64,000 nucleotides of DNA, taken from assembly GCA_017991515.1 (NCBI GenBank), contig JAGOQI010000003.1:5921-69920 (forward strand), read 5' to 3'. The stretch is from Minisyncoccota bacterium. GTDB lineage: Bacteria > Patescibacteriota > Minisyncoccia > Phycocordibacterales > UBA9973. The first letter of the stretch is position 1. Each line of letters opens with the position of its first letter. Under the pieces are notes generated by a model, which had not been told where the DNA came from, made no database searches, and saw only the letters and a program-made list of their open reading frames with translations. Shown piece by piece: positions 44,520 to 59,361 of this stretch. Made by a program: the position numbers and the translations under genes.

Positions 44520-46238
44520 CTATAAAAGCTTTTTGAGTTTCTTCTGAATAAATTTATCAACATCATCAATATCTTTTTGAATATCTTTAAATATTATTTC
44601 TTCATTTTTACTTAAATCTCTACCTACACTTATTTTTTGAAGTTCAACAAGTTGATCGTTAAGCTCCTCTTTCAAAAGACTTACCGCTCTATGAGCATCT
44701 TCTGTCGCCCTTTGAAGAGCTGATCTGTTTCTTTTCTTTAAAGATAGGAACTTATACCAACCAACATATAAAAAGATTATTAATAGTAATACTAAGATAA
44801 TTGCCGAAATAATCCAGAAAATTGTTATAGTTATTTTAGCAATATCAACCTTAAGGACATTTAATTGTACTTTTTCTGAGGGTTGACTTTTAACTGACTC
44901 TGATAAAATGTTTCTTGCTGAAACATTAATAAGTCCAACTTTTCTAATATTGTCAGCTGTTAGAGAAAAAGATCCATCAGAAGAAATTGTTGTTATATAT
45001 TTTTTTATTTCAACTCCAGATAGTTCTAACACTATCTCTGCCTGTTTGTTTGGGTAGTCACTTTTTCCAAAAATAACTACTGATTCTCCTTTTTTTATTT
45101 CAGAAGAACTCAAAGAAATAACAGGTGTGGTGATAGAAGAACTAATAAAACTGGTGTCAGATTGTGTAGAGTTACCAGCACCATCATAAGCTATTACAGA
45201 AATACTGTGATCACCCTGAATTAATATTGGAAGAACATATTCAGAATCTTTTAGATCACTTTTTTTAACAGTTAATACCTGACTGTCATCTATTTTAAGA
45301 GTGTAATAATCTATACCAGATGTTGAGTCCTCAGCATTTAAATTAATAATACTTTGATTGTTCTCTGTTCTGATTGTTGGAATAAAAGGCTCTGGAGCTT
45401 TTGTATCAACTTTTATTTTAAAATTGGTTATAGGACCAAAACCATTGGAGTTAGCATATCTAATATGAAAATAAAATGTACCATCAGGAAGCTCCGTAAG
45501 TGTTTTTTGGGTAACAGAGTTGTCGTAAGAAGTTGTAGGAATTGAATCTGGAATTCTATTAGTAAAAGCTTGAATTGATGTCACCCCTGTTGGAGTTTTC
45601 CAACTAAAAGAGGCGGTGTTATCAGAGTACCAAAGGTTTTGATCTGGATGAGTGACAGAAGTTACAATTGGTTTAGGGGGTGTATTGGTCTTTACAGTTG
45701 CAGGTGGTGGCGTAGGTTGAGGTTCTTCTTTAGTGTCTACAATTTGTATAACACTTGTACCTCTTCCTGATAAAATATCAGTGCCTAAACCGTCATTTTC
45801 GCGTATAGCAGCATCAGAGAAAAGAAGTGAGGCAGTTCCCTGTTTTTTAGCCCTAAAGGTAACAGAAGCAACCGTACCAGTACTACCATTATAGCCAGGA
45901 TTTGCCACTCCTCCATTAAAAGAAACTGTGCCTTTTGTATTTGAATACTCAGGATTTTCTACCCATAATGAAAAAATAGAAGGGCTTTTTGTTATAGATA
46001 TTACTTCTAAGAGATCCACTGGGAACTGAAGTATCGCTTCAGCATTATTAATATACTTACCTTGTGTATTTATATTAATTTTTACAGATACTATATTACC
46101 AACATTAATATTAGAAGTACTCGGTGTTAAGGATAGTGTAGCTGCATTTACTAATGTTGGGGTAAGAACAAATAGTAATACCAGTGTTAGTATTTTTATA
46201 TTTCTACTTATTTTAAAAATAATTAATTTACTTATCAT
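44520..46238 (-). CDS. membrane-anchored surface protein with N-terminal cohesin-like domain, Pro/Thr linker, Ig/FN3-like domains, C-terminal TM and coiled-coil tail
   Basis: 572 aa; signal peptide; cohesin-like block (..NVGNIVSVKININTQG..GTVSFNGGVANPGYNGSTGTVASVTFRAKKQGTASL..); PTPPPATVKTNTPPKP linker; TM ITITIFWIISAIILVLLLIIFLYVGW. Confidence 0.6.
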   Translation of the reverse strand: MISKLIIFKISRNIKILTLVLLFVLTPTLVNAATLSLTPSTSNINVGNIVSVKININTQGKYINNAEAILQFPVDLLEVISITKSPSIFSLWVENPEYSNTKGTVSFNGGVANPGYNGSTGTVASVTFRAKKQGTASLLFSDAAIRENDGLGTDILSGRGTSVIQIVDTKEEPQPTPPPATVKTNTPPKPIVTSVTHPDQNLWYSDNTASFSWKTPTGVTSIQAFTNRIPDSIPTTSYDNSVTQKTLTELPDGTFYFHIRYANSNGFGPITNFKIKVDTKAPEPFIPTIRTENNQSIINLNAEDSTSGIDYYTLKIDDSQVLTVKKSDLKDSEYVLPILIQGDHSISVIAYDGAGNSTQSDTSFISSSITTPVISLSSSEIKKGESVVIFGKSDYPNKQAEIVLELSGVEIKKYITTISSDGSFSLTADNIRKVGLINVSARNILSESVKSQPSEKVQLNVLKVDIAKITITIFWIISAIILVLLLIIFLYVGWYKFLSLKKRNRSALQRATEDAHRAVSLLKEELNDQLVELQKISVGRDLSKNEEIIFKDIQKDIDDVDKFIQKKLKKLL

Positions 46239-47142
46239 TTTTCTTTTTATTCTTACGGAACTTTTTTACAATTTTAAAGATCATAATAATAAACAGAACT
46301 GTAATAATAACTGATAGCCAGCGGATTGGTTCTTTGGCTTTTAAGACTGAGACTTGAAAGTTTCCAGCTTTATCATAAGCAGTTACTATGACATCAACAT
46401 TTTTATTTTGATTAATTAATATATAACTAGTACCTGTGCGCACTGCTAGATATGCACCTTCTCTAACTTCATAGTAACTAATACCAGATTGGCTATCTGT
46501 AGTTTCAAAAGAGAGAAACTTTTTTCCATCAAATAAACTACTATCTTGTACTATTTTTATAATAAAAGGTTCAGGAGCAACATTATCATTTGAAACAATC
46601 TCTTGCCATTTGTTTTGCGGATTAACACTTGCCTTTCCAATAGAAATAACAGAAGTGTCTTTTGCAATATCTAAAGCTGTACCAAGACCATCATTTAAAT
46701 AGACAGCTACTTTAGTTGGTATTATGGAGAATTTTCCAGAATCGTTGATTTTAACAATAATCTTAAAAAGTAAAATACGATCACCATTTATCCCGTTTGG
46801 AATTCCTCCAACAAAAGAGATCTTACCTCCTTCTTCAAGGGAAGGTTTACGAGGCCATATATTAAAAACAGAATTAACAAGACTGAGCTCCTTAACTTCA
46901 AAGTTTCCATTGTGCTCATCTTTGAGAGTGATTAATCCTTCAATAGAGTTTATTGTTTGACCTTCTGTATTTAAATAAACATTGATAATACTAGTATCAC
47001 CAGAAGAAATTGTACTTTCAGCAGAAGAATTAATTGTGGCAGCAAGAGTTTTACTAGGCACAATAAATAATATAAATATTGGTATTAAGAAGATTATTGA
47101 TTTGTATTTTATTTGTTTTTTCATATAGGTTTTTTGCCCCAT
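46228..47142 (-). CDS. cohesin-like domain surface protein with C-terminal TM anchor (paralogue of the preceding gene)
   Basis: 304 aa; signal peptide; cohesin-like block (..GDTSIINVYLNTEGQ..GKISFVGGIPNGINGDRILLFKIIVKINDSGKFSI..) alignable to the 572-aa protein; C-terminal TM + KKFRKNKKKNDK. Confidence 0.6.
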   Translation of the reverse strand: MGQKTYMKKQIKYKSIIFLIPIFILFIVPSKTLAATINSSAESTISSGDTSIINVYLNTEGQTINSIEGLITLKDEHNGNFEVKELSLVNSVFNIWPRKPSLEEGGKISFVGGIPNGINGDRILLFKIIVKINDSGKFSIIPTKVAVYLNDGLGTALDIAKDTSVISIGKASVNPQNKWQEIVSNDNVAPEPFIIKIVQDSSLFDGKKFLSFETTDSQSGISYYEVREGAYLAVRTGTSYILINQNKNVDVIVTAYDKAGNFQVSVLKAKEPIRWLSVIITVLFIIMIFKIVKKFRKNKKKNDK

Positions 47143-49574
47143 TGATAAAGCATAATGGAGAAGTCAACTGAGTCTGCCTTACTATCGCTGTTTATATCTA
47201 CACATGGATTTTTGAAAGGAGGAGATGTCTTCCAGAAGTAAAGCAATATGGAAAAATCAACAGAATCAACTACCCCGCTTTTATTAAAATCAGCTCCATT
47301 ACAAGAACCTGTTGGGGTTGGTGGTAAAGTAGTATTACCTCCACCCCCGCCTCCACCACCTCCTCCTCCTCCACTACTTCCAGAAACAGTAAACACTCTT
47401 GATGCGCCAGAACTCTCAGTTCCAAAATACACTATTAATTTAAAATAATATGTGCCAGCTGTTGAGACTGCTGCGGAAAGGTTTGTATTCCAGTCTTCAC
47501 CTGGGTTTATAAATTTTGCCGCTGAGGCATAGTAAGCATCATCGTTGCCACCACATTCATTGGCCAGCGAAGACACGACACACCATTCATATTGATATTC
47601 ATATCCAGTAAGACCTTCATTTGTGATTGTAGTATTACCAATAACAGAACTTACAGATGCAGCTGTTACAGAGTTAATCAATACTTGAGCTGGAGAACCT
47701 GCTACTTCCCAATAATCATTTGTTAATACTGTTTTACCACTTTCTACTTGAGTTGAGGCAACTGTCTCCCAGAGACCTTGAGCTGCTCCACTATTTACAG
47801 TATAGGTATACTCATATACACCAGTACTAACCAAGTTCATAGCCACACCAGAGACAACAACATTGCGACTTACATCATAAAGAGTAATTGTTGGAGCTGC
47901 AAATGGCGCTGTTGGTGCAGAACTGCCATCTAAAATAAATATCTTAGTTCTATACATCTGACCTGTTTGAACGCGTTCAATGTTACCCATTTTTACGATC
48001 CAGCTACCAGAAACAGAAGTAGCCCTAGAAGAAACCGTAGCATCAAGGTTTGTTTTAACCTGCTCTCCTATTGAGTCCACAGTAGTAATAGAAGATGAAA
48101 GAACATTCCAAACATCGGCAGCAGTTATATCATTGCCATAACTAGAGAGAGTTCTTGTAGCATTTGCCCAGACTGCAGTAGCTACAGCAGAAGTTGAGTA
48201 ATCAGTGAGAGTACGGGTAGCTGATGTCCAAACATCAGCAGCAGACAGGTTGCTTGTGCCACGAGTAGAAACTTGTGTGTCTAAATTGTCGACAATAAGT
48301 TTTCCAACACTTCCTGAGGTAGTAAGTGCTGAAGTTGCTTTGTCCCAAATCGCACTAACTGAAGTTCCTGAAATATCTACACCCGAAGTTAGTGTTCGAG
48401 TTCCGGCTGACCAAACATCAGTTGCAGAAATATTATTGAGGTCATTTATTAATGTAGCGTTTGCTTGAGTTTGAGTAAGAATATCTGAAGCTTTTGCATC
48501 TACATTTGTTTTAACTTGTTCTCCAATCGAACCAACAGTCGTGAGTGTGGATGAAAGAACATTCCAAACATCAGCAGCAGTTATATCATTGCCATAACTA
48601 GATAGAGTACGAGTACTAGCTGCCCAAACACCAGTAGATACAGCATCTACTCCTGAGCTAGATAGAGTTCTTGTAGCATTTGCCCAGACATCACCTGCAG
48701 TTAAGTTACTTGTACCTCTACTTGAAACTTGAGCATCAAGATTATCTAAAATAAGTTTACCTACACTCCCAGAAGTAGTGAGCCCAGAAGTTGCCTTATC
48801 CCAAATGGAAGTAACTGAAGCACTGTCTATATTTACAGTCCCAGAATTAGTAGAACGAGTACCATAAGTCCAAATATCAGCGGCAGAAATATTGTTCAAA
48901 GAGTTTATAAGTGTTCTATTTGTTTGAATTTCAGTAACAATAGTTGCTTGAGACGAGTCTACATATGTTTCTGTTGCAAGTGAACCTCCTCCGGCGATAT
49001 CTTTTGTTGTCAGTTGACGAGTTGGGGCAAAGGTATTATTCCAAACATCGGCAGCAAGTGAGCCGAAGGCTGTAAGTGTTCGAGTTCCATTACTCCAAAC
49101 GCTAGTTGCTATATCAGAGACAAGTGAGCCAAACGATGTAAGAGTTCTAGTTCCCGCTGACCAAACTGAGGACGCAATAGAAGAATCTGTTACAACAGGA
49201 GCCTTAAGAATAAAAGACTTATCTAATTTTAATAAATCCCCACCAATAAGAGTGCCACAACTTATAAAAGCAGGGTACTTCCCTTCTGTTGCTGGTGTTG
49301 CATAAGAATAATAGTGCCAACCTGTAGCATCATCAGTCATTGTCGCACTACTTACCAAGGGTGTTCCAGACGGAGAGTATATAGAGATAGTACAATCATC
49401 AGTAGTTGGGGTGTAGTCGTCGTTGTATATAAATTCCCCGATTGTAATAGTCTCTAGTGGTATATATATGTCGGAAGCGTAAACATTTACCGGCAAGAAT
49501 AATACAAGCCAAAGAAAAAAACTTGCTTGAATATAAAAATAAAATATTGTATTTTTAAAATAAATAATTTTCAC
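47121..49574 (-). CDS. large secreted repeat protein with C-terminal dockerin domain (two Ca-binding-loop repeats) preceded by a poly-Gly linker
   Basis: 817 aa; signal peptide; two ~152-aa tandem repeats; GGGGGGGGGGGG linker; C-terminal DFNKSGVVDSVDFSILLYFW ... DINSDSKADSVDFSIMLYQW = duplicated dockerin F-hand segments. Confidence 0.7.
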   Translation of the reverse strand: MKIIYFKNTIFYFYIQASFFLWLVLFLPVNVYASDIYIPLETITIGEFIYNDDYTPTTDDCTISIYSPSGTPLVSSATMTDDATGWHYYSYATPATEGKYPAFISCGTLIGGDLLKLDKSFILKAPVVTDSSIASSVWSAGTRTLTSFGSLVSDIATSVWSNGTRTLTAFGSLAADVWNNTFAPTRQLTTKDIAGGGSLATETYVDSSQATIVTEIQTNRTLINSLNNISAADIWTYGTRSTNSGTVNIDSASVTSIWDKATSGLTTSGSVGKLILDNLDAQVSSRGTSNLTAGDVWANATRTLSSSGVDAVSTGVWAASTRTLSSYGNDITAADVWNVLSSTLTTVGSIGEQVKTNVDAKASDILTQTQANATLINDLNNISATDVWSAGTRTLTSGVDISGTSVSAIWDKATSALTTSGSVGKLIVDNLDTQVSTRGTSNLSAADVWTSATRTLTDYSTSAVATAVWANATRTLSSYGNDITAADVWNVLSSSITTVDSIGEQVKTNLDATVSSRATSVSGSWIVKMGNIERVQTGQMYRTKIFILDGSSAPTAPFAAPTITLYDVSRNVVVSGVAMNLVSTGVYEYTYTVNSGAAQGLWETVASTQVESGKTVLTNDYWEVAGSPAQVLINSVTAASVSSVIGNTTITNEGLTGYEYQYEWCVVSSLANECGGNDDAYYASAAKFINPGEDWNTNLSAAVSTAGTYYFKLIVYFGTESSGASRVFTVSGSSGGGGGGGGGGGGNTTLPPTPTGSCNGADFNKSGVVDSVDFSILLYFWKTSPPFKNPCVDINSDSKADSVDFSIMLYQWGKKPI
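48045..48965 (-). repeat. internal in-frame tandem duplication (~460 nt x 2) inside the dockerin protein gene
   Basis: near-identical stretches, e.g. gaaagaacattccaaacatc(g/a)gcagcagttatatcattgccataactaga occurring at ~48095 and ~48560; protein units ...LIN(S/D)LNNISA.D.W..GTR...DKATS.LTTSGSVGKLI.DNLD.QVS.RGTSNL.A.DVW...TRTL... Confidence 0.8.
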
Positions 49575-49643
49575 AAATCGCCTCTAAAAACAAAGTCGCA
49601 TAGATAGTTGCGCTAAAAATATCTCTTGGAGAAAATAAGAATA

Positions 49644-49817
49644 TTATTTTTTATTATCCCCTTCAACAACATCACTATCTGAACCTTTAAAAACACCTGT
49701 TAGGTTTTTAAAAGCTTGAACAAGATTCTTTGCAAGCTCTGGTATCTTCTTTGACCCAAAAAGAAGAACGATAACAACGGCAATTATAATGATTTCTTTT
49801 GTTCCTAATCCAAACAT
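49644..49817 (-). CDS. tatA: twin-arginine translocase subunit TatA (copy 1, 57 aa); not in the ORF track
   Basis: MFGLGTKEIIIIAVVIVLLFGSKKIPELAKNLVQAFKNL... matches the TatA TM helix - FG hinge - amphipathic helix pattern. Confidence 0.75.
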   Translation of the reverse strand: MFGLGTKEIIIIAVVIVLLFGSKKIPELAKNLVQAFKNLTGVFKGSDSDVVEGDNKK

Positions 49818-50012
49818 AAATATTAAACAAGTTAATTAATAAACCCTATATTACTACTTTTTACTAACATCACTATCTTTAAATGCCCCAAAAATATGTC
49901 GAATAGCATCAGCTATTGATTTTGTAAGCTCTGGTATCTTCTTTGACCCAAAAAGAAGAACGATAACAACGGCAATTATAATGATTTCTTTTGTTCCTAA
50001 TCCAAACATAAA
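49734..50012 (-). repeat. two identical 87-nt direct repeats (49734-49820 and 49926-50012) = 5' ends of the tandem tatA paralogues
   Basis: aagctctggtatcttctttgacccaaaaagaagaacgataacaacggcaattataatgatttcttttgttcctaatccaaacataaa occurs twice verbatim. Confidence 0.9.
49854..50009 (-). CDS. tatA: twin-arginine translocase subunit TatA (copy 2, 51 aa); not in the ORF track
   Basis: MFGLGTKEIIIIAVVIVLLFGSKKIPELTKSIADAIRHIFGAFKD...; first 28 codons identical at DNA level to copy 1. Confidence 0.75.
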   Translation of the reverse strand: MFGLGTKEIIIIAVVIVLLFGSKKIPELTKSIADAIRHIFGAFKDSDVSKK

Positions 50013-50024
50013 ATAAATTTATTT

Positions 50025-50756
50025 TTATACTTCTAAACTGCGACCACGACTACCTATACGATTAAACAAAACTGTAAGCTCAAAAATTAATATCAACGGC
50101 AACGCCATTAATATCAATGATAAACCATCAGTTGGGGGAAGTAAAGAGACAATTATAAAAATAGTGACTATAGCATGCTTCCTTTTAGATCTTAAGAATC
50201 TTACGCTAATAATACGTAAACGAATAAGAAAAGTAATGACTAATGGAAATATAAATAAAAGACCTAAAAGAGTTGAAGTTAGTATAATCTGATAAATATA
50301 TGAACTAATATCCCAATAATTAACAACTCCTAAGTTCACATTTATTAAAGCAATTAATCTAATTGCGTAGTAGAGCATCACTGAGCTATATAAAAACCCT
50401 ACTATAAATAACAGTAGCCCTAGTGGCAAAGATAGTAAAAAAAACTTTCGCTCTTTAGGAAGTAATGCTGATTTTAAAAATGAATAAAGAAAATAAATAA
50501 GTATAGGAACAGTCACTATAGAAGCCATAAAGAAGCCTATACTCATTCCAAGATCAACCAACTGAAAAGGTGAGGTAGTAGCAATAGTAACTCCATCTAT
50601 TACTAAGTATTTTAACATCAACTTTATGATAGGACCTATATTAAGAAAACTTATAGCAAATACAATAGCAAATATTTTTACAAGTAGAACTAATCTTCCT
50701 CTTAACTCTTCAAAGTAAGTAGCGTATTTAGCTAAATTTGTTTGGAAATTACTCAT
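50025..50756 (-). CDS. tatC: twin-arginine translocase subunit TatC
   Basis: 243 aa; 6 TM; N-terminal ..YFEELRGRLVLLVKIFAIVFAISF.. resembles the TatC HLxELRxRL motif; immediately upstream of tatA-tatA. Confidence 0.6.
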   Translation of the reverse strand: MSNFQTNLAKYATYFEELRGRLVLLVKIFAIVFAISFLNIGPIIKLMLKYLVIDGVTIATTSPFQLVDLGMSIGFFMASIVTVPILIYFLYSFLKSALLPKERKFFLLSLPLGLLLFIVGFLYSSVMLYYAIRLIALINVNLGVVNYWDISSYIYQIILTSTLLGLLFIFPLVITFLIRLRIISVRFLRSKRKHAIVTIFIIVSLLPPTDGLSLILMALPLILIFELTVLFNRIGSRGRSLEV

Positions 50757-50768
50757 AAAAATTTTAGG

Positions 50769-50951
50769 CTACTCTGACATTATAAAAATATTTCCACCAC
50801 CAGTTTTCTCTGGTGCTTCTAAAAGTAAATATTGAGTACCATTAGCCTCTACCAAGATATCATTAACTGATCCAACGTAAGCAATAAAAGGAAACTCAGT
50901 AATAAAATCCTGCCCTTCCCCTTCTTGAAAATTAATGTCAGTTAGTGCCAT
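50769..50951 (-). CDS. hypothetical small protein (60 aa) in the tat-linked operon
   Basis: ORF 12 nt upstream of tatC, same strand. Confidence 0.4.
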   Translation of the reverse strand: MALTDINFQEGEGQDFITEFPFIAYVGSVNDILVEANGTQYLLLEAPEKTGGGNIFIMSE

Positions 50952-50957
50952 AAAATT

Positions 50958-51563
50958 TTACCCAAATTTTCTTTTAGTTTTTCTATTTAACATACTTACA
51001 GCTTGCTCTTCTGGTATTACCTCTGGGACAATTTCTTCAACAGGTGTTAGAAAAACTTCTTGTTCTGGTTGTATACCTTCTGTAGGTACTTCTTCTTCAG
51101 GTAACACTTCCTCTTTAATTGTTTCTTCTGGAATATTTTCTTCTTCCTCAGCGGCTTCTTCTATGGTTTCCTCAATTTCTTCTTTTTGTTCATCTGGATT
51201 TATTTTTTTCTCTTCCATTTTTTCTTGTTCAGTAACTATAGCTTCATCTAAAGAACCAGGTTCAAGCTCTCCATTATCCATCTGTGCCAAAAGTTCGTTT
51301 GTCATCCTGACATATGAAGCTGCTGTATGGGTGGATGTCGGATCAATTTTTAAGATTTCTTCCCCAAGTTCTTTGTGTCCACTAAATTTATAAACAAGTC
51401 CTCCGTACTTTATATATTGAGCTTGAAATGTACCAGAAATTATATTAGGACTATCTACATCATAAAATTCAATAAGAGTACCATCTTCATAATCACCCGT
51501 AAGTGTAGCCACTTTTAGATTTTCACTTTCAAATACATTTTGGTCTTGAGTAATGTGAATCAT
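50958..51563 (-). CDS. hypothetical protein with Glu-rich low-complexity C-terminal tail
   Basis: 201 aa; C-terminus EEKKINPDEQKEEIEETIEEAAEEEENIPEETIKEEVLPEEEVPTEG. Confidence 0.5.
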   Translation of the reverse strand: MIHITQDQNVFESENLKVATLTGDYEDGTLIEFYDVDSPNIISGTFQAQYIKYGGLVYKFSGHKELGEEILKIDPTSTHTAASYVRMTNELLAQMDNGELEPGSLDEAIVTEQEKMEEKKINPDEQKEEIEETIEEAAEEEENIPEETIKEEVLPEEEVPTEGIQPEQEVFLTPVEEIVPEVIPEEQAVSMLNRKTKRKFG

Positions 51564-53696
51564 TTAATTTTGGGTGAGTAATGCTCTCACTTTTATGTTA
51601 TCTGCTAAAGACGTTGGAGTGTACCTTATATAGGTTGTCTCATTCCCTTTATCAGTAGTATCATATGCGCCCCAAGCACTACCATCGTTAGTAGATTTTT
51701 CAAAAACTCCAGAAGATTCTGCAGTAGTTGTGTCATCTAAAAGCAATCCGCCTGTTTCCGCATTATAAAGTCTAATTCGTAAGTTCGGTACTGTACTACT
51801 AAACGCAGTAGAGAATCTCCAAGCAAATATTTTGTTTATTGTCGAAGATTGTCCAACTGATGGTTGATAGTGTGAGTCAGTAGTATTATCTTCGTACACT
51901 AGAGTCATGCTATATATTCGTGCAGGAATACAATTCTCTCCTAAGATTTTAAATTCAAACATAAACTGGATAGCCGCTCCAGGTATGACACCAGTAAAAT
52001 CATGTGTGTCATCGAGCGCATTCCAAGCACCAGAATCGTCAGAAATTCCAGAAGTACGATAAAACATACGGTACGGTTCAGGTTGTAATCCGAGAGTACC
52101 AGAACCTAATTGCAAAGCATTATTTACATAAACACGATATAAAGTAGAAGCATCAGTAGTATCAAGAGATGGAGTTATGAGTCGCTGATATGGAGCTTGT
52201 CCTGCGTAAGCCCAGTGGACACCCGTCGGTACTGCATACAACTGGTTTAAGGTGACAGACGCAGTTACTCTGGCCATATAAGAGATACCACCTTCCGACC
52301 ACACTGAGAAAGGTAGTGCTGATATGGCCGGGTGTGGAGTAGCTCCCGAGTCCGTGGTGCTCTGATCGTACTGCTTATCATCAGAAAGAAATATGTGATC
52401 AAAAGGATCACCAGTTGTATTATATTTTGTCACATAGCTTCTAGCACCAGCTGTCCCAGAACTCATAACAATAAGCCTATCCATACTGTCAGCAATCTCA
52501 ACAGAACTTAAAGCAGAGTTAAGTGGGTATGTCACAGAACCACCAGGAGGAACCTCTATCATTGCATCACTTTGCCATGCAGGGTTACCACTAGTGATAT
52601 TACTAAGAGCCGCTCTATAAACTCTTGTTGTCGTCACAAAATACAATGATTCTACACCACTAGCAGGTCCATGGGTAAGTACCCCAATTCTTCCATTGTT
52701 TAACTGTGAACAAGTTCCAGTAGGTGTTTGGGCGGCAGTCACTAAAACAAATGCGGAGACAGATTTGCCAGAAGAAAGCCCAGCAAGAGGTGCTCGTATA
52801 TTGTATTTATACACCCTATTTGTAGTTGTTGTACCATCTATAACATAAATATAGTGCTGTAAAAAAGAGTCTCTGTCTTCAATAGCAGATCCGCAGGCGA
52901 TAGTGTTCGTAACAGTAGAAGCATCTGCCAACCAGTAACATGCTCGGATATTGTCAGTGGTAGTAGCTGCTGGTATTGTGGTTCCACCATTTGAAAATAC
53001 CGAGTCTCTTAAACCTTTTACTACAAACAATCCTCCGTTAGCCGGTGTAGCATTTGTTGTTGCTATTACTGCACGCAATTCCTCAACTACATATGCTCCA
53101 TTGGTAATAGTCCCAGCACTAGCAGTCAGTGTGATACTCGTGTCCGAAACAATAGAAGCAACTTCATACCATGTAGTAATTGATCCAGGGACAGTAGAAC
53201 CAAATCCTATACGAGAACCAACAGCAACTCCATCTGTAAGCCATGTCGTACCACTACCAGTAACTGTTGTGCCACTCACTGATGCTGTACCAGTAATGTG
53301 AAAGTCTCTCGTCATACGAAAACCTCTTACTGTATGAACTGTAGCTGTAGGAAAAGTAACGGTAATAAATCCATCCCAATTAAAAACCCCGGTTGAAATT
53401 GTATGTTGATATTTTATTATTCTTCTTGTAGCAGCTGCTGTTCCATTATCGATAAGAAATACCCAATTAACATCTGGATTAGACGTAGTGACAACATATG
53501 GAAAAACAGCAGCAATAGCAGTGCTGGCTTCCATTGGTCGAGCGAGCCCGATAGGCATGGGGCCCACAAATTTATCCAAACTGGTTGCACCAGTCCTCTG
53601 TTGAATTAAAACACCTAGATTAGTTTTACTGGGATCATAACTTGTGTATGGAGTAACAGCTCCAGTAAAAACATGTTCTATCGCTCGTTTTGCCAT
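51564..53696 (-). CDS. hypothetical large Thr/Gly/Ser/Ala-rich protein (710 aa), no signal peptide; composition atypical for this genome (structural/beta-rich?)
   Basis: long uninterrupted ORF; visibly GC-richer coding DNA than neighbours; abuts flanking genes with 0-8 nt spacers. Confidence 0.6.
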   Translation of the reverse strand: MAKRAIEHVFTGAVTPYTSYDPSKTNLGVLIQQRTGATSLDKFVGPMPIGLARPMEASTAIAAVFPYVVTTSNPDVNWVFLIDNGTAAATRRIIKYQHTISTGVFNWDGFITVTFPTATVHTVRGFRMTRDFHITGTASVSGTTVTGSGTTWLTDGVAVGSRIGFGSTVPGSITTWYEVASIVSDTSITLTASAGTITNGAYVVEELRAVIATTNATPANGGLFVVKGLRDSVFSNGGTTIPAATTTDNIRACYWLADASTVTNTIACGSAIEDRDSFLQHYIYVIDGTTTTNRVYKYNIRAPLAGLSSGKSVSAFVLVTAAQTPTGTCSQLNNGRIGVLTHGPASGVESLYFVTTTRVYRAALSNITSGNPAWQSDAMIEVPPGGSVTYPLNSALSSVEIADSMDRLIVMSSGTAGARSYVTKYNTTGDPFDHIFLSDDKQYDQSTTDSGATPHPAISALPFSVWSEGGISYMARVTASVTLNQLYAVPTGVHWAYAGQAPYQRLITPSLDTTDASTLYRVYVNNALQLGSGTLGLQPEPYRMFYRTSGISDDSGAWNALDDTHDFTGVIPGAAIQFMFEFKILGENCIPARIYSMTLVYEDNTTDSHYQPSVGQSSTINKIFAWRFSTAFSSTVPNLRIRLYNAETGGLLLDDTTTAESSGVFEKSTNDGSAWGAYDTTDKGNETTYIRYTPTSLADNIKVRALLTQN

Positions 53697-53703
53697 AAAT
53701 ATT

Positions 53704-54342
53704 TTATACTTCTAAATAATCAATGTTAATTTGCACTGTAGTTGTGCCAACTATAAAACAGTATAACACTTCATCGACTCCTCCTTCAATATAATTTGGA
53801 TGATTGTTTGCACCATAAAGCCCACCAGTCTTTGGGGAAACATATTTTTCATGATCAGTACCACCGGAAGTAAAACGAAATGATACAGAGGTCGCATCTG
53901 TTGTCAAAGAAAACCTCGAAGCATATACTCTTATTTTTTTTCCAGAAGCTGGAGTCCTAACATTTCCAGAAGCAGATAAATTTATAGATAACTTAGTAAC
54001 TCCTTGACCAGAAATTAAAGAAGCTAATGTCTCTTCAGTAGCAGGATTAATTCTATTGTTTGCATCATCCTTTAATCCAACGATATTTGAAGTAGGAGTA
54101 CTACCAGCTACATAAGCTTCTGCAGATTTTGGAAATAATGCCCCTGCAGCAAGCCCAAGACCTGCAACACCGGCAATTTTTAAAAATAGTCTCTTATTAT
54201 CATCAATAGATGAGTCAGGTGTTTCTACTAAAGAAATTGTTTCTTCTTTTTTTACCGGCAAAACAACATCTGGACGCAAAGTAATACTTTGATTTAAAGT
54301 ATTACTTTTTTTAACATCAAAATATTTTTTGGAATTAGACAT
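53704..54342 (-). CDS. hypothetical exported protein with twin-arginine-like (KR variant) signal peptide
   Basis: 212 aa; ..DDNKRLFLKIAGVAGLGLAAGALFPKSAEA-YV: consensus S/T-R-R-x-F-L-K with K-R, hydrophobic core, AxA cleavage site; a 48-aa extension precedes the motif, so the start may be further downstream. Confidence 0.55.
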   Translation of the reverse strand: MSNSKKYFDVKKSNTLNQSITLRPDVVLPVKKEETISLVETPDSSIDDNKRLFLKIAGVAGLGLAAGALFPKSAEAYVAGSTPTSNIVGLKDDANNRINPATEETLASLISGQGVTKLSINLSASGNVRTPASGKKIRVYASRFSLTTDATSVSFRFTSGGTDHEKYVSPKTGGLYGANNHPNYIEGGVDEVLYCFIVGTTTVQINIDYLEV

Positions 54343-54398: not shown

Positions 54399-54430
54399 TT
54401 AAAAACAGTACCTAGTGGTACTGTTTTTAG
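54399..54430. terminator. intrinsic terminator hairpin (aaaaacagtacc-tagt-ggtactgttttt)
   Basis: 12-bp palindrome with built-in A/T runs, downstream of the 78-aa gene and upstream of the tat-linked block. Confidence 0.65.
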
Positions 54431-54444
54431 ACAATATTTATAAA

Positions 54445-54681
54445 TTACTTCCCCATCATTAGTTTTTGGAGTTCACCTTGATGTTTTCGCATTATTTCCA
54501 TAGAAGCAGCCATTTCACTCTTGCCTGACTTTTTAGCATCTTCTATTTCTTTAGAAAGCATCTTGAAAAAATCAGGATTAGCTTCGACGGCTTTCATAAT
54601 GGCATCACGCTGAGCTGGAGGCAAATTTTTCAACTGCTTCTCCATAAGCTTATTTGTTATCATCTTTTTTAATCCAAACAT
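54445..54681 (-). CDS. hypothetical small helical protein
   Basis: 78-aa ORF, Lys/Glu/Met-rich. Confidence 0.45.
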   Translation of the reverse strand: MFGLKKMITNKLMEKQLKNLPPAQRDAIMKAVEANPDFFKMLSKEIEDAKKSGKSEMAASMEIMRKHQGELQKLMMGK

Positions 54682-54719: not shown

Positions 54720-55472
54720 TTAAAACTTCCTTAATTCTAAAGCTAAAAACATTGGGAATTCTTTGCGGGCTGTATCTTCTGCCTTTTGGCGAGGGCCTGC
54801 TTGACTCTTTTTGTGAGAAATCCATTCTTCTATGGTCGTAATAGCAAAACCTTGTTTCTTGAAAGCTTTCATATACCACTGTAATGATCGATGAAAAGTA
54901 GTTGTTATTCTGCCTTTATTTTTATAAGGGTTTTGTTCTATATCTATTTTTATTTCTGATAAATATTTATCTGTACGACGATATTGTAAATCTTTCTTAC
55001 TATCGAAACCCCAGTCGCTATACTGTGGTATGCGAAAAACTGGATGAAGTAATACTAATGTAAAAGTTCCATCATTTTTCAGAACTCTTTTTATTTCAAA
55101 CATTACTTCATCTACATTTTTGATATTTTCAAAAGCTAATACTGTAAAAACTTTATCGAAAGATTCTTTTTTGAGTTTTATGTCATGGGCTGGTGCAACA
55201 ATATAAGAAATATCTGTCGACTTTTCTTCAGCTATTTTTATAAGATCTTTTGATAAATCTACTCCCGTAACACTAGCTCCAAGATTTTTTATCAATCTAG
55301 AGAAATATCCTTGGCCACAAGCAAGATCTAAAACACTTTCTCCTTTTTTTATTTCAAGAATTCTTAATAAATTAGGAGCTATAACTTTCTCTTGAAAAGA
55401 ATCATTACTCTTTTCTAAATATGAGTCATACCACGGAGCTACATTATCCCAATCTGTTTTTTGTATTTTCAT
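54720..55472 (-). CDS. class I SAM-dependent methyltransferase
   Basis: motif I VLDLACGQGYFS and post-I VDLS; start placed at MKIQKTDWDNVAPWYDSY (4 nt after the upstream stop) instead of the longer overlapping ORF-track start. Confidence 0.8.
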   Translation of the reverse strand: MKIQKTDWDNVAPWYDSYLEKSNDSFQEKVIAPNLLRILEIKKGESVLDLACGQGYFSRLIKNLGASVTGVDLSKDLIKIAEEKSTDISYIVAPAHDIKLKKESFDKVFTVLAFENIKNVDEVMFEIKRVLKNDGTFTLVLLHPVFRIPQYSDWGFDSKKDLQYRRTDKYLSEIKIDIEQNPYKNKGRITTTFHRSLQWYMKAFKKQGFAITTIEEWISHKKSQAGPRQKAEDTARKEFPMFLALELRKF

Positions 55473-57295: not shown

Positions 57296-58061
57296 TAAAA
57301 AAATTGAACAATTAAAAATGTTAAAAGATATCACTCTTTCTGAAAAAGAACGGGGTATTCTTCGTACCAAGATTGCTAGAAGTATTCAAACACTAGAATC
57401 TACACCAAAAATATCTTATTTTTACAGTGGAGTCAGTCATGGTCTTCGTATTGGCTTATCAACATTTCTATTTATAGTTTTCGTTGGCGGGAGTGTTTCT
57501 GTTGTAGCTGATAATTCCCTTCCTGGAGATCCTTTGTACTCATTTAAAATAAATGTAAACGAAGAAGTTAAAGGTGCTTTTATAAAAAGCCCTGCAGACA
57601 AACTCTCATATCAAACAACTCTAATAGATAATCGTTTAACAGAAATCAAAACTCTTGCTGCTTCAAAAACACTAACAAAAGCTAAACAAGAAACAGCTCA
57701 AAAAGCATTGGATACTCACATAGAGTCACTTTCAAAACAACTCTCTACACTCTCTGATGCGAAGCCTGCAGAAGCTTTAAAAGTAACAGCAACTCTTGAA
57801 GAGAGCTTGAAAGTACAAAAAGAAGACCTAGAAAAAATTATTGTAAAAGAAAATAGTGATACAACAGATACTGCTTTGAAAGCCGTAGATGATACTATAA
57901 AAAAAGTATCTGCCCAAGAAGTAAAAATAATCTCAAAAGAAATTGATCAACTTGTTTTAGATATAAAAGAAGTTCCAGAAACTAAAGTTACAGGAGAAAC
58001 AGAAGTAAAATCTACTACTGAAGTTAAGGCTCCTGCTCTACCTTCTTCTCCATTAAGATAA
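57288..58061 (+). CDS. DUF5667-type membrane protein, candidate anti-sigma factor partner
   Basis: 257 aa; overlaps the sigma gene by 8 nt; single TM then LPGDPLYSFK hallmark motif and extended helical region. Confidence 0.65.
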   Translation: MIDKKIEQLKMLKDITLSEKERGILRTKIARSIQTLESTPKISYFYSGVSHGLRIGLSTFLFIVFVGGSVSVVADNSLPGDPLYSFKINVNEEVKGAFIKSPADKLSYQTTLIDNRLTEIKTLAASKTLTKAKQETAQKALDTHIESLSKQLSTLSDAKPAEALKVTATLEESLKVQKEDLEKIIVKENSDTTDTALKAVDDTIKKVSAQEVKIISKEIDQLVLDIKEVPETKVTGETEVKSTTEVKAPALPSSPLR

Positions 58062-59352
58062 AAAGAATTATCACCACCAATAAAACTCCGCCAAAAATTA
58101 ACTTTTTTGATTGCGGATTTTTATTTTTCTCCGGTTCTATTTTAAAATCTTGAATATTAAGAACATTTTGATCTTCTAGTGTGTTTTCATTATAAATACC
58201 AAGAACCTTTGGTGCACTTACTTGAGAAGACGACTTTACTTCTGTATTGTTTTTCTCCTGAACTACACTGTTAACTATATCAACTCTTTGAGATGTTTGA
58301 AGAACAGCATTTGTATATTTATTATCAGAGATACCAAAAGAACTAAATGGCATCAAAACACTCTTTTTAGATGCAATAATAGTAAATGCTGGTAATTCGA
58401 TTAATTTATTATCAGGTAATTCAATAAACCAACCAGAGATATCTATGGGTACTACATCAGAGTTCGTGAACTCAAAACCTTTTTCAGAGATAACCCTGAA
58501 ACTAATTTGATTATTAATAACCGTTTTTTCAATAGAACTATAGAGAAAAGGTTTCTTTTCATAAGGTGCTCTAAAATAAGCAAATGAAATAGTGTAAAGA
58601 CCAGGATAATTATAAGTATGATTTATAATTTCATTTTTATTAGACTTGTAAACTGTTCCATCGCCCATATTCCAAAGAAATAATCCTTCGTAAGCTTGCC
58701 CAAACTCTAAAAATGTTTTAGCACTATACTCTGCACTAACTTTAATATAAACATTTTTTGGTATTGATATTTCTATATGAGGTTCAGATTTAGGGGCTGA
58801 CCAAGCTACTCCTGTATTATTTTTTGGAGGATCTCCTGGTGTATCTTCTGCACCTTTTGGAGTCGCAGACTTAGGAGTTGGATTTGTGGTAATCCATTTT
58901 GAACCATCCCATTGCATAGTTTGTTTTGTAGTTGCATCTCCTGCTGGCCAACCAGAAGAAAAATCTAAACTTTGCTCTATTGTTCCTACTGAATTTTTTA
59001 ATACTAAATACTCTCCAGTATTTGCAAAACCGCTACCACTAAATGGTCCTGACTCATCATTTATACCTGGAACTGGGTCGGGACTACTAGCTGTCGTTCT
59101 TTCTACTAATAAATACCCTTCTGAAGAAATAGTTTTTGTTAGAGTAAAAACAAGTTGATCTCCTCCACCTTCATAAAGTTTCCAACCAGACAAGGAAACA
59201 TTTTCCGCACTATCATTGTACAATTCAATCCATTCTCCAAACTGACTTTCTGCCGTACCCATCCAGGCAATCTCTGTAATACGAACACTAGCAAAAGCAT
59301 AGTTTGTTATCAATAACACCGTGCATATGAACAATGTTGCAAAACGAATCAT
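58024..59352 (-). CDS. lamin-tail-domain (LTD) secreted protein with C-terminal TM anchor
   Basis: 442 aa; signal peptide; LTD-like block RITEIAWMGTAESQFGEWIELYNDSAENVSLSGWKL..GYLLVE and a second degenerate copy (ISGWFIELPDNKLIELPAFTIIA); C-terminal TM LIFGGVLLVVIILFILM. Confidence 0.6.
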   Translation of the reverse strand: MIRFATLFICTVLLITNYAFASVRITEIAWMGTAESQFGEWIELYNDSAENVSLSGWKLYEGGGDQLVFTLTKTISSEGYLLVERTTASSPDPVPGINDESGPFSGSGFANTGEYLVLKNSVGTIEQSLDFSSGWPAGDATTKQTMQWDGSKWITTNPTPKSATPKGAEDTPGDPPKNNTGVAWSAPKSEPHIEISIPKNVYIKVSAEYSAKTFLEFGQAYEGLFLWNMGDGTVYKSNKNEIINHTYNYPGLYTISFAYFRAPYEKKPFLYSSIEKTVINNQISFRVISEKGFEFTNSDVVPIDISGWFIELPDNKLIELPAFTIIASKKSVLMPFSSFGISDNKYTNAVLQTSQRVDIVNSVVQEKNNTEVKSSSQVSAPKVLGIYNENTLEDQNVLNIQDFKIEPEKNKNPQSKKLIFGGVLLVVIILFILMEKKVEQEP

Positions 59353-59361
59353 GTTAAAAAA

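Follow-up and report, generated by a model that had tools for sequence, protein, structure and literature searches.

A phage-related four-gene cassette beside a minimal Tat translocase in Patescibacteria, a candidate for export in folded form

Layout of the tat-linked module

On the minus strand of the 64,000 nt stretch of DNA analysed here (the window), the ORF list gives a block of four open reading frames, for proteins of 212, 710, 201 and 60 amino acids (aa), that precedes tatC-tatA-tatA. All four reading frames and the tat genes of the original prediction were found, but the full conserved module is larger than the block first flagged. It spans about 44520-54342 and also comprises the genes for three Sec-exported proteins (817, 304 and 572 aa), one with a dockerin and two cohesin-like. 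The features are, along the minus strand:

54400..54429, minus strand: terminator-like hairpin (13-bp stem and T-run; hairpin scan), downstream of the 78-aa gene preceding the block
53704..54342, minus strand: 212-aa protein, predicted Tat substrate by sequence comparison; variable N-region, Tat signal, highly conserved beta-domain of ~135 aa
54115..54204, minus strand: core of this Tat signal (residues 47-76); D-D-N-K-R-L-F-L-K, Gly/Ala-rich h-region, Pro-Lys c-region, A-E-A and then Tyr77
51564..53696, minus strand: 710-aa all-beta protein; six-bladed beta-propeller core, inserted 70-aa domain, C-terminal beta-sandwich, no signal peptide
53085..53294, minus strand: the inserted small beta-domain (residues 135-204 of the 710-aa protein); weak PHROG tail-fibre match (phrog_1980, E=2.6e-4)
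50958..51563, minus strand: 201-aa protein; conserved N-domain of ~100 aa, Glu-rich tail; its start codon abuts the stop of the 710-aa gene (TAAATG)
50769..50951, minus strand: 60-aa acidic protein, conserved in the cluster; viral counterparts with E down to 4e-20 (locus L091)
50025..50756, minus strand: tatC; full-length match to Pfam TatC, E=1.1e-33
49854..50009, minus strand: tatA copy 1; Pfam TatA_B_E, E=3e-11
49644..49817, minus strand: tatA copy 2, first 84 nt identical to copy 1; Pfam TatA_B_E, E=7e-12
47121..49574, minus strand: 817-aa Sec-signal protein; 'DVW..TRTLT' repeats, MG2 Ig-like domain (E=2.9e-8), poly-Gly linker, C-terminal dockerin
46228..47142, minus strand: 304-aa protein; Sec signal, cohesin-like N-domain (family profile search), Ig-like domain, C-terminal membrane anchor
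44520..46238, minus strand: 572-aa paralogue of the 304-aa protein; Sec signal, cohesin-like N-domain, Ig-like domain, hydrophobic hairpin

The intergenic gaps from the 212-aa gene down to tatC are 7, 0, 6 and 12 nt; the first had been given as 8 nt, while the other three values were correct. Between positions 55000 and 49600 of the minus strand, the scan revealed no strong terminator-like site besides the hairpin at 54429-54400, which is the likely 5' limit of the transcription unit. No strong hairpin was detected in the gaps from the 212-aa gene to tatA, and the proposed single transcript of these genes with tat is plausible. Promoter-like matches occurred at chance frequency (36 observed, 31.8 +/- 5.7 expected) and are therefore uninformative.

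The six-bladed beta-propeller of the 710-aa protein was confidently modelled by structure prediction. Its relatives carry one to three copies of the inserted 70-aa domain, and this difference in repeat number accounts for the length classes of 704, 800 and 886 aa within the family. Thr, Gly, Ser and Ala together make up 40.8% of the protein, in line with the richness reported before. An N-terminal hydrophobic segment was not found, as had also been stated, and neither a signal peptide nor a TM segment was present in ~270 relatives. The GC content of the gene is indeed elevated (0.41 versus roughly 0.29-0.39 in the other measured genes), but the GC comparison does not support a foreign origin. 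It is codon position 2 that is enriched (0.52), while GC3 is 0.25 and thus genome-typical (0.20-0.28 for housekeeping genes), which points to an effect of amino-acid composition. In relatives, the 710-type domain is fused to PKD, BNR and ConA-like lectin/LamG domains, suggesting an extracellular character of the family. Foldseek-type searches returned generic propellers, or multi-domain matches with TM-scores of 0.2-0.3, so that a role in glycan binding or processing is only an analogy. Within the same operon, a single 212-aa gene can have one, two or three 710 paralogues with it.

No Pfam or NCBIfam match was obtained for the 212-, 710-, 201- and 60-aa proteins, in agreement with the view that they belong to no recognisable family. 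The C-terminal half of the 201-aa protein is Glu-rich (D and E account for 50 of the 201 residues of the protein), although not a strict poly-Glu tail as described originally. Its gene accompanies the 710-type gene in CPR and in phages, and its product is a candidate assembly factor or subunit. As for the downstream dockerin and cohesin genes that had been proposed, Dockerin_1 scores 20.7 bits in the 817-aa protein of the window, under the Pfam cut-off of 22.9, and 33.2 bits in the L003 orthologue. The cohesin assignment is weak. A profile of the 304-aa family matches Ruminococcus scaffoldin cohesins with E ~5e-4, none of 40 family members matches Pfam Cohesin, and seven of the 40 match Big_13. 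The 572-aa gene comes after the 304-aa gene in most loci, and a PHROG search of the 817/304/572 trio gave no match.

Tat signal of the 212-aa protein and linkage to tat

Residues 50-77 of the 212-aa protein contain a KRLFLK motif, a hydrophobic core and an AEA-Y site, as the original prediction had recognised. The complete signal pattern ([KR]R-x-F-L-K, Gly/Ala-rich core, Pro-Lys c-region, A-x-A) is present in 167 of 175 relatives. Among these 167, the motif is KR in 142 and RR in 25, a basic c-region residue occurs in 149, and A-x-A stands ahead of Y or L in 146. These properties agree with the Tat signal consensus and the Sec-avoidance feature described in PMC7317946. The same source notes that an Arg-to-Lys substitution is poorly tolerated in model Tat systems (PMC7317946). 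KR replaces RR in 85% of the 212-aa family, an observation that counts against the Tat-export reading.

No other ORF of at least 100 aa in the window carries a Tat motif, and the 212-aa family is essentially the only consistent Tat-motif candidate in 1.07 Mb of related CPR sequence. All of its 638 relatives are unannotated. Its members from Patescibacteria share ~80% identity in the mature domain; AF2 modelled the protein poorly (pLDDT 55). From its sequence, the 212-aa protein is a very good candidate for a Tat substrate, as had been suggested, and it is predicted to act as carrier or adaptor for the 710-aa protein. The h-region of the signal is conserved to the same degree as the mature domain, which is unusual for a cleaved signal, and it may therefore serve as a membrane anchor. 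The L021/L022 variant of the 212-like protein begins with several TM helices, after which come a Tat-type motif and the final helix.

The conservation of the block beside tatC was followed in a census of loci with at least 3 kb on each flank, covering ~18 kb of sequence per genome. TatC was encoded in all 42 Patescibacterial loci, the 212-, 201- and 60-aa genes occurred together with tatC in 38, and the 817+304 pair was present in 35 of the 42. The linkage to tat outlasts changes in gene order, with a downstream position in L001, an upstream position in L003 and a divergent arrangement in L026, L021 and L022. Repetition of the cassette-tat arrangement in dozens of divergent genomes is far beyond chance and fits the proposal that the Tat system is reserved for the cargo set encoded with it. 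As judged from these loci, the module is chromosomal and widespread in Patescibacteria of the Paceibacteria/Parcubacteria type.

Phage relatives of the cassette

By sequence comparison all four cassette genes have phage counterparts, the main point that was missed originally. Full-length relatives of the 710-aa protein lie in virion modules of prophages and viral contigs (39-59% identity; 39-50% for prophages), and 170 matches to the family were retrieved from IMG/VR. In a Roseomonas prophage (L076) the homologue follows genes for baseplate hub, wedge, tail fibre and fibre assembly; in a Polaromonas prophage (L046) it has portal on one side and protease-MCP on the other. In 39 of 80 viral loci, the gene directly upstream codes for a tail-fibre-like or virion-structural protein. 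Terminase, portal, capsid or baseplate genes are clearly recognisable in several of the prophage and viral-contig loci. No homologue was found among 50,697 deposited phage genomes, and the viral evidence thus rests on prophages and uncultured viral contigs.

Downstream of the viral 710 homologues come 60- and 201-like genes, and in some cases a 212-like gene lies upstream of the homologue. A 60-like gene is located directly after the homologue in about 20 viral loci. The 201-like genes beside it match with E=6e-6 in the Roseomonas and Opitutia prophages and down to 1e-21 in viral contigs. Directly upstream of the viral 710 gene, L115, L118 and L120 harbour 212-like genes, whose products share the C-terminal domain and a 'VG-x-K..RINPAT' segment with the cellular protein. 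An RR motif or hydrophobic core is absent from these three viral proteins, and tatC was not present within 8 kb in any of the 80 viral loci. Viral relatives of the 212-aa protein do not share its candidate ligand residues H164 and C195. In a NJ tree the CPR and viral copies of the 710 family are interleaved, which suggests exchange between CPR cells and phages in one direction or the other.

Proposed function, alternatives and known systems

We consider it somewhat probable that the chromosome has adopted a phage host-recognition-type cassette whose products are exported in folded form via a dedicated TatAC. The position of phage-shared genes beside tat, together with the acquired Tat signal, suggests that these ultra-small cells probably display a phage-type complex for host recognition on their surface. 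The four-gene cassette shared with phages would be combined with a minimal Tat translocase of its own (TatC and one or two TatA), and a single transcript would extend from the 212-aa gene as far as tatA or beyond. The 212-, 710- and probably the 201- and 60-aa proteins would reach their folded, assembled state in the cytoplasm, a requirement that also holds for their phage relatives. The acquired [KR]R-x-F-L-K signal of the cellular 212-aa protein would then guide the complex, already folded, to TatAC, and the 710-aa protein, which has no signal itself, would be a putative passenger; piggy-back (hitch-hiker) cargo is probably the best reading for the latter. The signal of the 212-aa protein would be cleaved at A-x-A or retained as a membrane anchor. 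Outside, the complex may cooperate with the dockerin-bearing 817-aa protein and the membrane-anchored, cohesin-like 304- and 572-aa proteins, and the surface structure built from them would recognise or process glycans of cell surfaces. If true, this would be a cellular counterpart of a phage receptor-binding device, suiting bacteria that are attached to other cells. An earlier description of such a phage-shared cassette with a Tat exporter was not found in the searchable literature.

Two alternatives concern the fate and the activity of the 710-aa protein. Tat might serve the 212-aa protein only, as exported protein or Tat-dependent anchor, while the other three cassette proteins (710, 201 and 60 aa) remain cytoplasmic and owe their linkage with it only to inheritance as a unit; they could then interfere with phages that use related virion proteins, or include an enzyme for a cytoplasmic substrate. 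The missing export signal throughout the 710 family, the conservation of the 212-aa h-region like that of a functional TM helix, and the multi-TM N-terminus before the Tat motif in L021/L022, which recalls Sec/Tat dual-targeted Rieske proteins, are in agreement with this. We nevertheless regard it as unlikely, considering that 212-like and 710 genes are neighbours in phages too, pointing to a physical partnership, that PKD, BNR and LamG are extracellular-type fusion partners, that Sec-exported surface proteins belong to the module, and that up to three 710 paralogues share one 212-aa gene. A propeller exported in folded form by Tat could also be chiefly a glycan hydrolase or lyase (depolymerase-like) that breaks down polysaccharide of the host or the environment for nutrients, and not an adhesin or receptor-binding device. 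This is possible, if doubtful: the 710-aa protein lacks a CAZy-type as well as a Pfam or NCBIfam match, no known catalytic motif was found in it, and its TM-scores are low. The enzyme differs from the host-recognition complex in final function alone, and the export mechanism is the same.

Other readings assign the proteins to known structural classes. It appears very unlikely that the 212-aa and 710-aa proteins go back to the tail adaptor and nozzle of a podovirus (T7 gp11/gp12 type) and now form an envelope channel, e.g., for DNA or macromolecule transfer between episymbiont and host. In the PDB, Foldseek ranked chains of ~790 aa from the tail complexes of Kp7 (E=1e-10) and T7 (E=2e-6) best, P22 gp10-like proteins are among the BFVD matches, and the order major head protein, 212-like, 710 in L118 and L120 resembles T7 genes 10-11-12. 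However, hhalign against T7 gp12 and gp11 gave no relationship (probability ~1%), TM-scores are ~0.2, the commonest viral neighbour is a tail-fibre-like protein, and the family also follows tail-fibre genes in a myovirus-type prophage; its movement between cells and different types of phage is unlike that of a core tail-channel protein. An S-layer protein, or another envelope protein that forms a lattice, is quite improbable as well. The Thr/Gly/Ser/Ala-rich composition and a widespread family adjoining surface-protein genes would suit it, but the propeller architecture, the relatives in virion modules and the high sequence conservation, which is atypical of S-layer proteins, stand against it. 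No anchoring domain was found in the 710-aa protein, and the S-layer-like export system suggested originally received no specific support. It had also been argued that a match to a phage family would indicate a prophage remnant. Such matches exist for all four genes, but a decaying remnant beside tat by accident is scarcely credible and was rejected: the module is intact, strongly conserved at the amino-acid level in dozens of divergent genomes and always beside tat, GC3 is genome-typical, and the Tat signal is a cell-specific gain. The window locus is flanked by housekeeping genes (topA, relA/spoT, parB, miaA, ychF, uvrC); these flanks showed no terminase, portal or capsid genes, and none of the flanking genes tested had a match to a phage family.

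The proposed export of a host-recognition complex resembles several known systems. Gram-positive minimal TatAC systems such as Bacillus subtilis phoD-tatAd-tatCd have a TatB-less translocase in the operon of the cargo it seemingly serves. TatA and TatC without TatB likewise share an operon with a candidate cargo here, but in place of one enzyme this cargo comprises four unannotated phage-related genes, KR prevails in the signal, and a large signal-less partner and Sec-exported dockerin and cohesin-like proteins are co-encoded. In Tat hitch-hiker export, e.g., of the small and large subunits of [NiFe] hydrogenase or of DmsAB, hetero-oligomers fold and assemble before export. A small protein with a twin-arginine signal is also encoded beside a larger signal-less partner in our locus; unlike in hitch-hikers, no cofactor is evident, the partners are related to a phage virion module, and the pairing is putative. 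Actinobacterial Rieske proteins are dual-targeted by Sec and Tat (PMC7317946). The L021/L022 212-like protein is similar to them in its several N-terminal TM helices, Tat-type motif and last helix, while the 212-aa protein of the window has a soluble N-region and no Fe-S domain.

With the phage endosialidase tailspikes of K1F and phi92 the 710-aa protein shares a six-bladed propeller, an inserted small beta-domain and a place in the virion tail-fibre region. It differs by low similarity (9-11% identity, TM 0.26-0.30), lacks an N-terminal capsid-binding domain, a triple beta-helix stalk and any known catalytic residues, and gave no Pfam or PHROG sialidase match. Haloarchaea, in which Tat serves most secretion (PMC6525301), build Tat-fimbriae ('tafi') as a surface structure from Tat-dependent subunits of a dedicated gene cluster, assembled by donor-strand exchange (PMC11821415). 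Compared by description, a Tat-linked surface structure (here predicted) from a dedicated cluster is common to both; the tafi cluster is not known to have a dedicated translocase or a phage link. Tailocins, pyocins and the PblA/PblB adhesins of Streptococcus mitis phage SM1 are phage tail or virion-surface proteins used by the cell; they exit by lysis or holin action, and many phage genes are kept. Virion-type proteins would be used by the cell toward other cells in our case as well, but here only a four-gene cassette is found, together with a gained signal peptide and a private exporter for folded proteins.

Organization and conservation of the tat-linked cluster

Ten genes on the minus strand, the four-gene cassette, the tat genes and three genes for Sec-exported proteins, follow a strong terminator-like structure:

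54429-54400: strong hairpin with T-run, 3′ of an upstream 78-aa gene
54342-53704, minus: 212-aa gene (ORF)
53696-51564, minus: 710-aa gene (ORF)
51563-50958, minus: 201-aa gene (ORF)
50951-50769, minus: 60-aa gene (ORF)
50756-50025, minus: tatC (Pfam TatC PF00902, E=1.1e-33, profile positions 3-208 of 208)
50009-49854, minus: tatA copy 1 (TatA_B_E PF02416, E=3e-11)
49817-49644, minus: tatA copy 2 (TatA_B_E PF02416, E=7e-12)
49574-47121, minus: 817-aa gene, Sec-type signal peptide
47142-46228, minus: 304-aa gene, Sec-type signal peptide
46238-44520, minus: 572-aa gene, Sec-type signal peptide

The seven genes from the 212-aa gene to the second tatA are separated by 7, 0, 6, 12, 15 and 36 nt. 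The tight spacing reported in the original prediction (8, 0, 6 and 12 nt) thus holds, although its first gap has to be corrected to 7 nt. A gap of 69 nt lies between the second tatA and the 817-aa gene, and the 817-, 304- and 572-aa genes overlap one another. A terminator scan revealed no comparable hairpin with T-run in the intergenic gaps from the 212-aa gene to tatA, and a promoter scan gave matches at chance level. The sequence TTGCAC...TAAGAT upstream of the 212-aa gene was not used as a promoter, since its -35 hexamer matches in only 3 of 6 positions. An ORF of 152 aa on the plus strand (50935-51393), antisense to the 201-aa gene, was attributed to the GAA-rich codons of the Glu-rich region and discarded as a gene. 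The two tatA genes (49644-50009) are identical over their first 84 nt and divergent thereafter, which suggests that a tandem duplication or a gene conversion took place recently; in many related loci there is a single tatA. Beyond the terminator, the 78-aa gene (54445-54681) is also present upstream of the cluster in the homologue loci L006, L012, L049 and L065. About 4 kb upstream of the cluster (58024-61221), a TrwB/VirD4-like type IV coupling ATPase (619 aa) adjoins a protein with a Lamin-tail domain (442 aa).

All window proteins were mapped onto 79 loci from species-representative genomes; linkage was counted in the 42 Patescibacterial loci whose flanks extend over 3 kb or more on either side. 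As expected if the block is kept beside tatC in related genomes, tatC was present in all 42. The 212-, 201- and 60-aa genes together with tatC were found in 38 of the 42, and the 817- and 304-aa genes in 35. These loci range in GC from 0.31 to 0.57 and carry labels such as Paceibacteria, Nomurabacteria, Magasanikbacteria, Adlerbacteria, Zambryskiibacteria and others. The occurrence of Tat genes in Paceibacteria, Microgenomatia and Saccharimonadia has been described (PMC9166423). The recurring set consists of the 212-aa gene, one to three tandem 710 paralogues, the 201- and 60-aa genes, tatC, one or two tatA genes and homologues of the 817-, 304- and 572-aa genes. Rearranged loci stay linked to tat: tatC-tatA lies upstream of the cassette in L003 and is divergently oriented in L026, L021 and L022, and the 817/304/572 trio is frequently inverted and placed upstream of the cluster. 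Because the trio recurs in the set and linkage outlasts rearrangement, the four-gene block with tat, as proposed originally, is present but is part of a larger functional unit that spans about 44520-54342. Three tandem 710-type genes behind a single 212-aa gene were seen in L045, L047, L050, L052, L060, L067, L068 and L072, and also in L040. These three copies form three orthologous groups on a neighbour-joining (NJ) tree, so that the triplication is old.

The 817-aa protein contains many repeats of the type S/A-x-x-D-V-W-x-x-x-T-R-T-L-T (47121-49574) and a run of 13 Gly before a putative type I dockerin. The window protein scores 20.7 bits for this domain, short of the cut-off of 22.9, and the orthologue of L003 scores 33.2 bits. 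Orthologues reach 2,305 aa (L003). Matches of the 817-aa protein in the PDB were dismissed, as they were only poly-Gly linker artefacts (scFv linkers). An essential dockerin-domain protein has been described in a Saccharibacterium (PMC10633639). None of 40 members of the 304/572 family matched Pfam Cohesin; a family profile aligned with Ruminococcus scaffoldin cohesin chains at E=5e-4 over only about 60 residues, and we consider the family weakly cohesin-like on this sequence similarity.

The 212-aa protein and its predicted twin-arginine signal

The 212-aa protein was originally suggested to carry a twin-arginine signal of the KR variant, a candidate signal that recurs in its relatives. The full pattern, [KR]R-x-F-L-K, a Gly/Ala-rich core, Pro-[Lys/Arg], and small-x-Ala before Tyr or Leu, was found in 167 of 175 distinct family members. 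The window protein reads N-K-R-L-F-L-K, the Lys at the first position departing from the consensus S/T-R-R-x-F-L-K. Among the 167 proteins the pair is KR in 142 and RR in 25, x-F-L-K is nearly invariant, 149 have Pro-[K/R], and 146 an A-x-A that is followed by Y or L. The family has a weakly hydrophobic h-region rich in Gly and Ala, a basic residue in the c-region and an A-x-A site; the motif starts at a median residue of 53 and is preceded by a variable N-region. Among window ORFs of at least 100 aa only the 212-aa protein has it, and in 1.07 Mb of related CPR (Patescibacterial) sequence it was found in all 61 ORFs of the family; the remaining matches comprise helices inside TatC, one spurious ORF and the signal peptides of two 817/304 homologues. 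The signal agrees with the Tat consensus and the basic 'Sec-avoidance' residue of the c-region, although Lys substitution in the twin-Arg pair is badly tolerated in model Tat systems (PMC7317946), a caveat for the KR majority. From these features the 212-aa protein is predicted to be a Tat substrate. In one locus (L016, 12043-15318) an 817-aa homologue has a signal peptide with 'RRNRRFLL', and the Sec-type 817 partner might use Tat itself in some lineages.

The AlphaFold2 model of the 212-aa protein was poor (pLDDT 55) and was not used for searches, and a family profile gave nothing meaningful against PDB sequences. Genes for 212-like proteins lie directly upstream of the 710 homologue in the viral contigs L115, L118 and L120 (E=1e-38 to 1e-44). 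The viral and the cellular proteins have in common a C-terminal beta-domain and a preceding 'VG-x-K...RINPAT-E' segment, which in the window protein reads 'GSTPTSNVVGLKD..RINPATEE'. The viral proteins have neither a twin-arginine motif nor a hydrophobic core; the N-terminal part is either missing or a long extension of unrelated sequence. Since they represent the shared domain without the signal, the cellular version would be a phage-type domain to which a Tat signal was added. A metal or cofactor site as the cause of Tat dependence was rejected, as H164 and C195 of the 212-aa protein are not conserved in the viral relatives.

In the variant clusters L021 and L022 the 212-like protein is encoded on the opposite strand (10360-11200, minus strand). 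It has an N-terminus with several TM segments, KR/RR-x-F-F-K, a hydrophobic core and A-x-A, followed by a different C-terminal domain, a layout that recalls the Sec/Tat dual-targeted Rieske proteins. As the RINPAT-type segment persists, together with the Tat motif, core and A-x-A, despite the changed C-domain, the segment 'VG-x-K...RINPAT-E' is suggested to be the functional link of the 212-aa protein to the 710-aa protein. In both loci a gene for a 138-aa phage 'virion structural' protein (phrog_35197/10330) precedes the 710 homologue.

The 710-aa protein and its relatives in phages

In line with the original statement that the block belongs to no recognised family, none of the four cassette proteins matched Pfam or NCBIfam. 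PHROGs returned nothing for them except a weak tail-fibre match (E=2.6e-4) at residues 135-203 of the 710-aa protein, in an inserted domain of 70 aa (residues 135-204). Longer relatives have this domain in one to three copies, which explains size classes of 704, 800 and 886 aa. Major head proteins of the viral contigs L118 (1950-3053) and L120 (4054-5199) contain a segment 'GTVTVT..GAVTGVGTTFT..MVG.PFKA.GH' that resembles it and may be a mobile small beta-domain common to capsid and fibre proteins. Clustered sequences include more than 1,500 relatives of the 710-aa and more than 600 of the 212-aa protein; among the matches listed all named relatives are "hypothetical", with identities of about 50% to more than 90%, and a 'Candidatus Pacebacteria' MAG encodes a hypothetical protein with 100% identity to a window protein. 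An exhaustive search with the 710-aa protein gave 440 clusters (50% identity), nearly all of which have a length of about 700 aa and match end to end. A context for the two families, if assigned, would improve the annotation of thousands of genomes.

AlphaFold2, run with a 48-sequence alignment, predicted the 710-aa protein confidently as all-beta (pLDDT 87, pTM 0.79). The best Foldseek matches in the PDB were chains of about 790 aa from the tail complexes of Klebsiella phage Kp7 and T7 (E=1e-10, 2e-6). Phage endosialidases, an endo-arabinanase and PL24 lyases came next, and TM-scores were only 0.2-0.3 throughout; matches in BFVD were uncharacterised Caudovirales proteins, P22 gp10-like proteins and endosialidase tailspikes. 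No signal peptide and no TM segment is present in any of about 270 relatives, which fits a virion protein, and the N-terminal extensions of some homologues are inserted beta-domains and not export signals. The GC excess of the gene noticed originally is real but sits at codon position 2 (0.52), reflecting the Thr/Gly/Ala/Ser-rich composition, while GC3 (0.25) is typical of the genome; a foreign origin as its cause was ruled out by this codon-position analysis.

Full-length 710 homologues are found inside phage structural gene modules. In eight loci of the genome search, labelled Roseomonas (four), Opitutia, Polaromonas, Lysinibacter and Dependentiae and in seven cases high in GC, neither tat nor the rest of the cassette is present, and all four that were examined (L076, L046, L031, L033) have phage context. 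In Roseomonas (L076) genes for baseplate hub, baseplate wedge, tail fibre and fibre assembly precede the homologue, which matches over its full length at about 41% identity; in Polaromonas (L046) terminase lies upstream, and portal and protease/major-head genes flank the homologue; L031 and L033 have virion-structural or tailspike-like neighbours. A tblastn search of 50,697 GenBank phage records gave no match to the 710 family, and IMG/VR gave 170 matches with 39-59% identity. Terminase, portal, major head and head-decoration genes surround the homologue in the viral contig L114, and others have major head (L118, L120), tail fibre (L091) or endolysin-domain (L115) genes nearby. The commonest viral neighbour resembles a tail fibre, varies in length, is rich in repeats and has a 'virion structural' C-domain (phrog_35197/phrog_10330); it lies directly upstream of the 710 homologue in 39 of 80 viral loci. 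The smaller cassette members also occur with phages: the homologue has 201-like proteins beside it in the prophages labelled Roseomonas and Opitutia (E=6e-6) and in 15 viral loci (down to 1e-21), and 60-like proteins follow it in about 20 (down to 4e-20). tatC was found within 8 kb in none of the 80 viral loci examined.

On an NJ tree of 182 sequences, a crude midpoint-rooted distance tree whose details are provisional, the tat-linked 710 copies are not monophyletic but interleaved with viral and prophage copies, which suggests repeated exchange of 710 genes between cells and phages. The viral clade nearest to the window protein (IMG/VR contigs L084-L100, 53-59% identity) has GC of 0.24-0.52, mostly about 0.3 and thus low like that of Patescibacteria, with a tail-fibre-like gene upstream and no tat. 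These contigs may be phages of Patescibacteria, and some of 370-520 kb could be misclassified cellular DNA.

Proposed export of the cassette and alternative explanations

Since the cytoplasm is where virion proteins fold and assemble, and folded proteins are exported by the Tat pathway, an added twin-arginine signal would be a logical solution for bringing such proteins to the outside. Given a phage cassette, a twin-Arg signal gained by one member and the invariable linkage to TatAC, the simplest account is that the cell exports the assembled cassette by TatAC, with the signal on the 212-aa protein and the signal-less 710-aa protein riding on it. The Sec-exported 817-, 304- and 572-aa proteins would be a plausible surface scaffold. 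By analogy to the usual place of the 710 gene beside tail-fibre genes in phages, the function could be recognition or processing of another cell's surface, which would suit episymbiotic bacteria. We infer export, piggy-backing, location and function alike, and regard this account as a whole as slightly more probable than not. Piggy-backing itself is less certain: it has indirect support from the adjacency of the 212- and 710-type genes in cells and phages and from the 710 family, in which about 270 members all lack a signal. That only the 212-aa protein is exported or anchored appears rather unlikely to us.

What the cargo does is a separate matter. It could be chiefly a glycan-degrading enzyme, a tentative idea that is compatible with the same export mechanism. 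Rare fusions of 710 proteins with PKD, BNR/sialidase-like and ConA-like lectin domains are of extracellular, carbohydrate-binding module types, and the polar residues R162, D258, H342, R358, E381, D406, R547 and Q577, each conserved in 97% or more of the sequences, could mark a binding or catalytic site; no sialidase or endosialidase family HMM match or catalytic residues were detected in the 710-aa protein. Comparably tentative is the reading as a host-attachment device of Patescibacteria, in which a phage receptor-binding cassette would be prefolded, exported by a private TatAC and displayed on a cohesin-dockerin scaffold. In this complex the 212-aa protein would be the carrier, joined by between one and three beta-propeller proteins of the 710-aa type and by the 201- and 60-aa proteins as partners, and the signal peptide grafted onto the carrier would drive the complex through TatAC. 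If true, swapping of propeller genes with phages would let an episymbiont shift the cell surfaces it recognises, as phages shift their host range. An S-layer protein is improbable. Still less credible is a channel derived from the podovirus nozzle/adaptor (T7 gp12/gp11, P22 gp10), for which the sole argument, the Foldseek matches to the tail complexes at TM 0.2, is opposed by hhalign probabilities of 1.2% and 0.5% against T7 gp12/gp11 and by the lack of a PHROG or Pfam match. The original prediction had taken a match to phage proteins as the sign of a prophage remnant. Homologues in phage modules do exist, but the flanks of the window are housekeeping genes (ychF, methyltransferase, NDH-2-like oxidoreductase, sigma factor, topA, relA/spoT, parB, miaA, uvrC, SpoU methylase), GC3 is genome-typical, the 817-, 304- and 572-aa proteins have no match in PHROGs, and neither neighbouring terminase, portal, capsid or integrase genes nor atypical composition were seen at the locus, which makes a remnant the least credible explanation of all.

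To our knowledge, host recognition and attachment by the ultra-small, host-dependent Patescibacteria are largely unknown outside a few cultivated Saccharibacteria, and we know of no explanation for the retention of Tat in such reduced genomes. The module is a concrete candidate for both, as its translocase appears to exist for one conserved cargo set, related to phage virion genes that usually lie beside tail-fibre genes. A search of the full-text literature found no description of the tat-linked cluster, and as far as we found it would be the first virion protein cassette adapted to cellular use by an added twin-arginine signal. The module would work in the manner of Gram-positive TatAC operons dedicated to their substrate and of Tat hitch-hiker pairs; it also recalls the haloarchaeal Tat-fimbriae (PMC11821415) and phage tail proteins adopted by cells. 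In contrast to these four systems, its cargo is an unannotated four-gene cassette shared with phages, with a grafted signal and conserved in a major Patescibacterial group.
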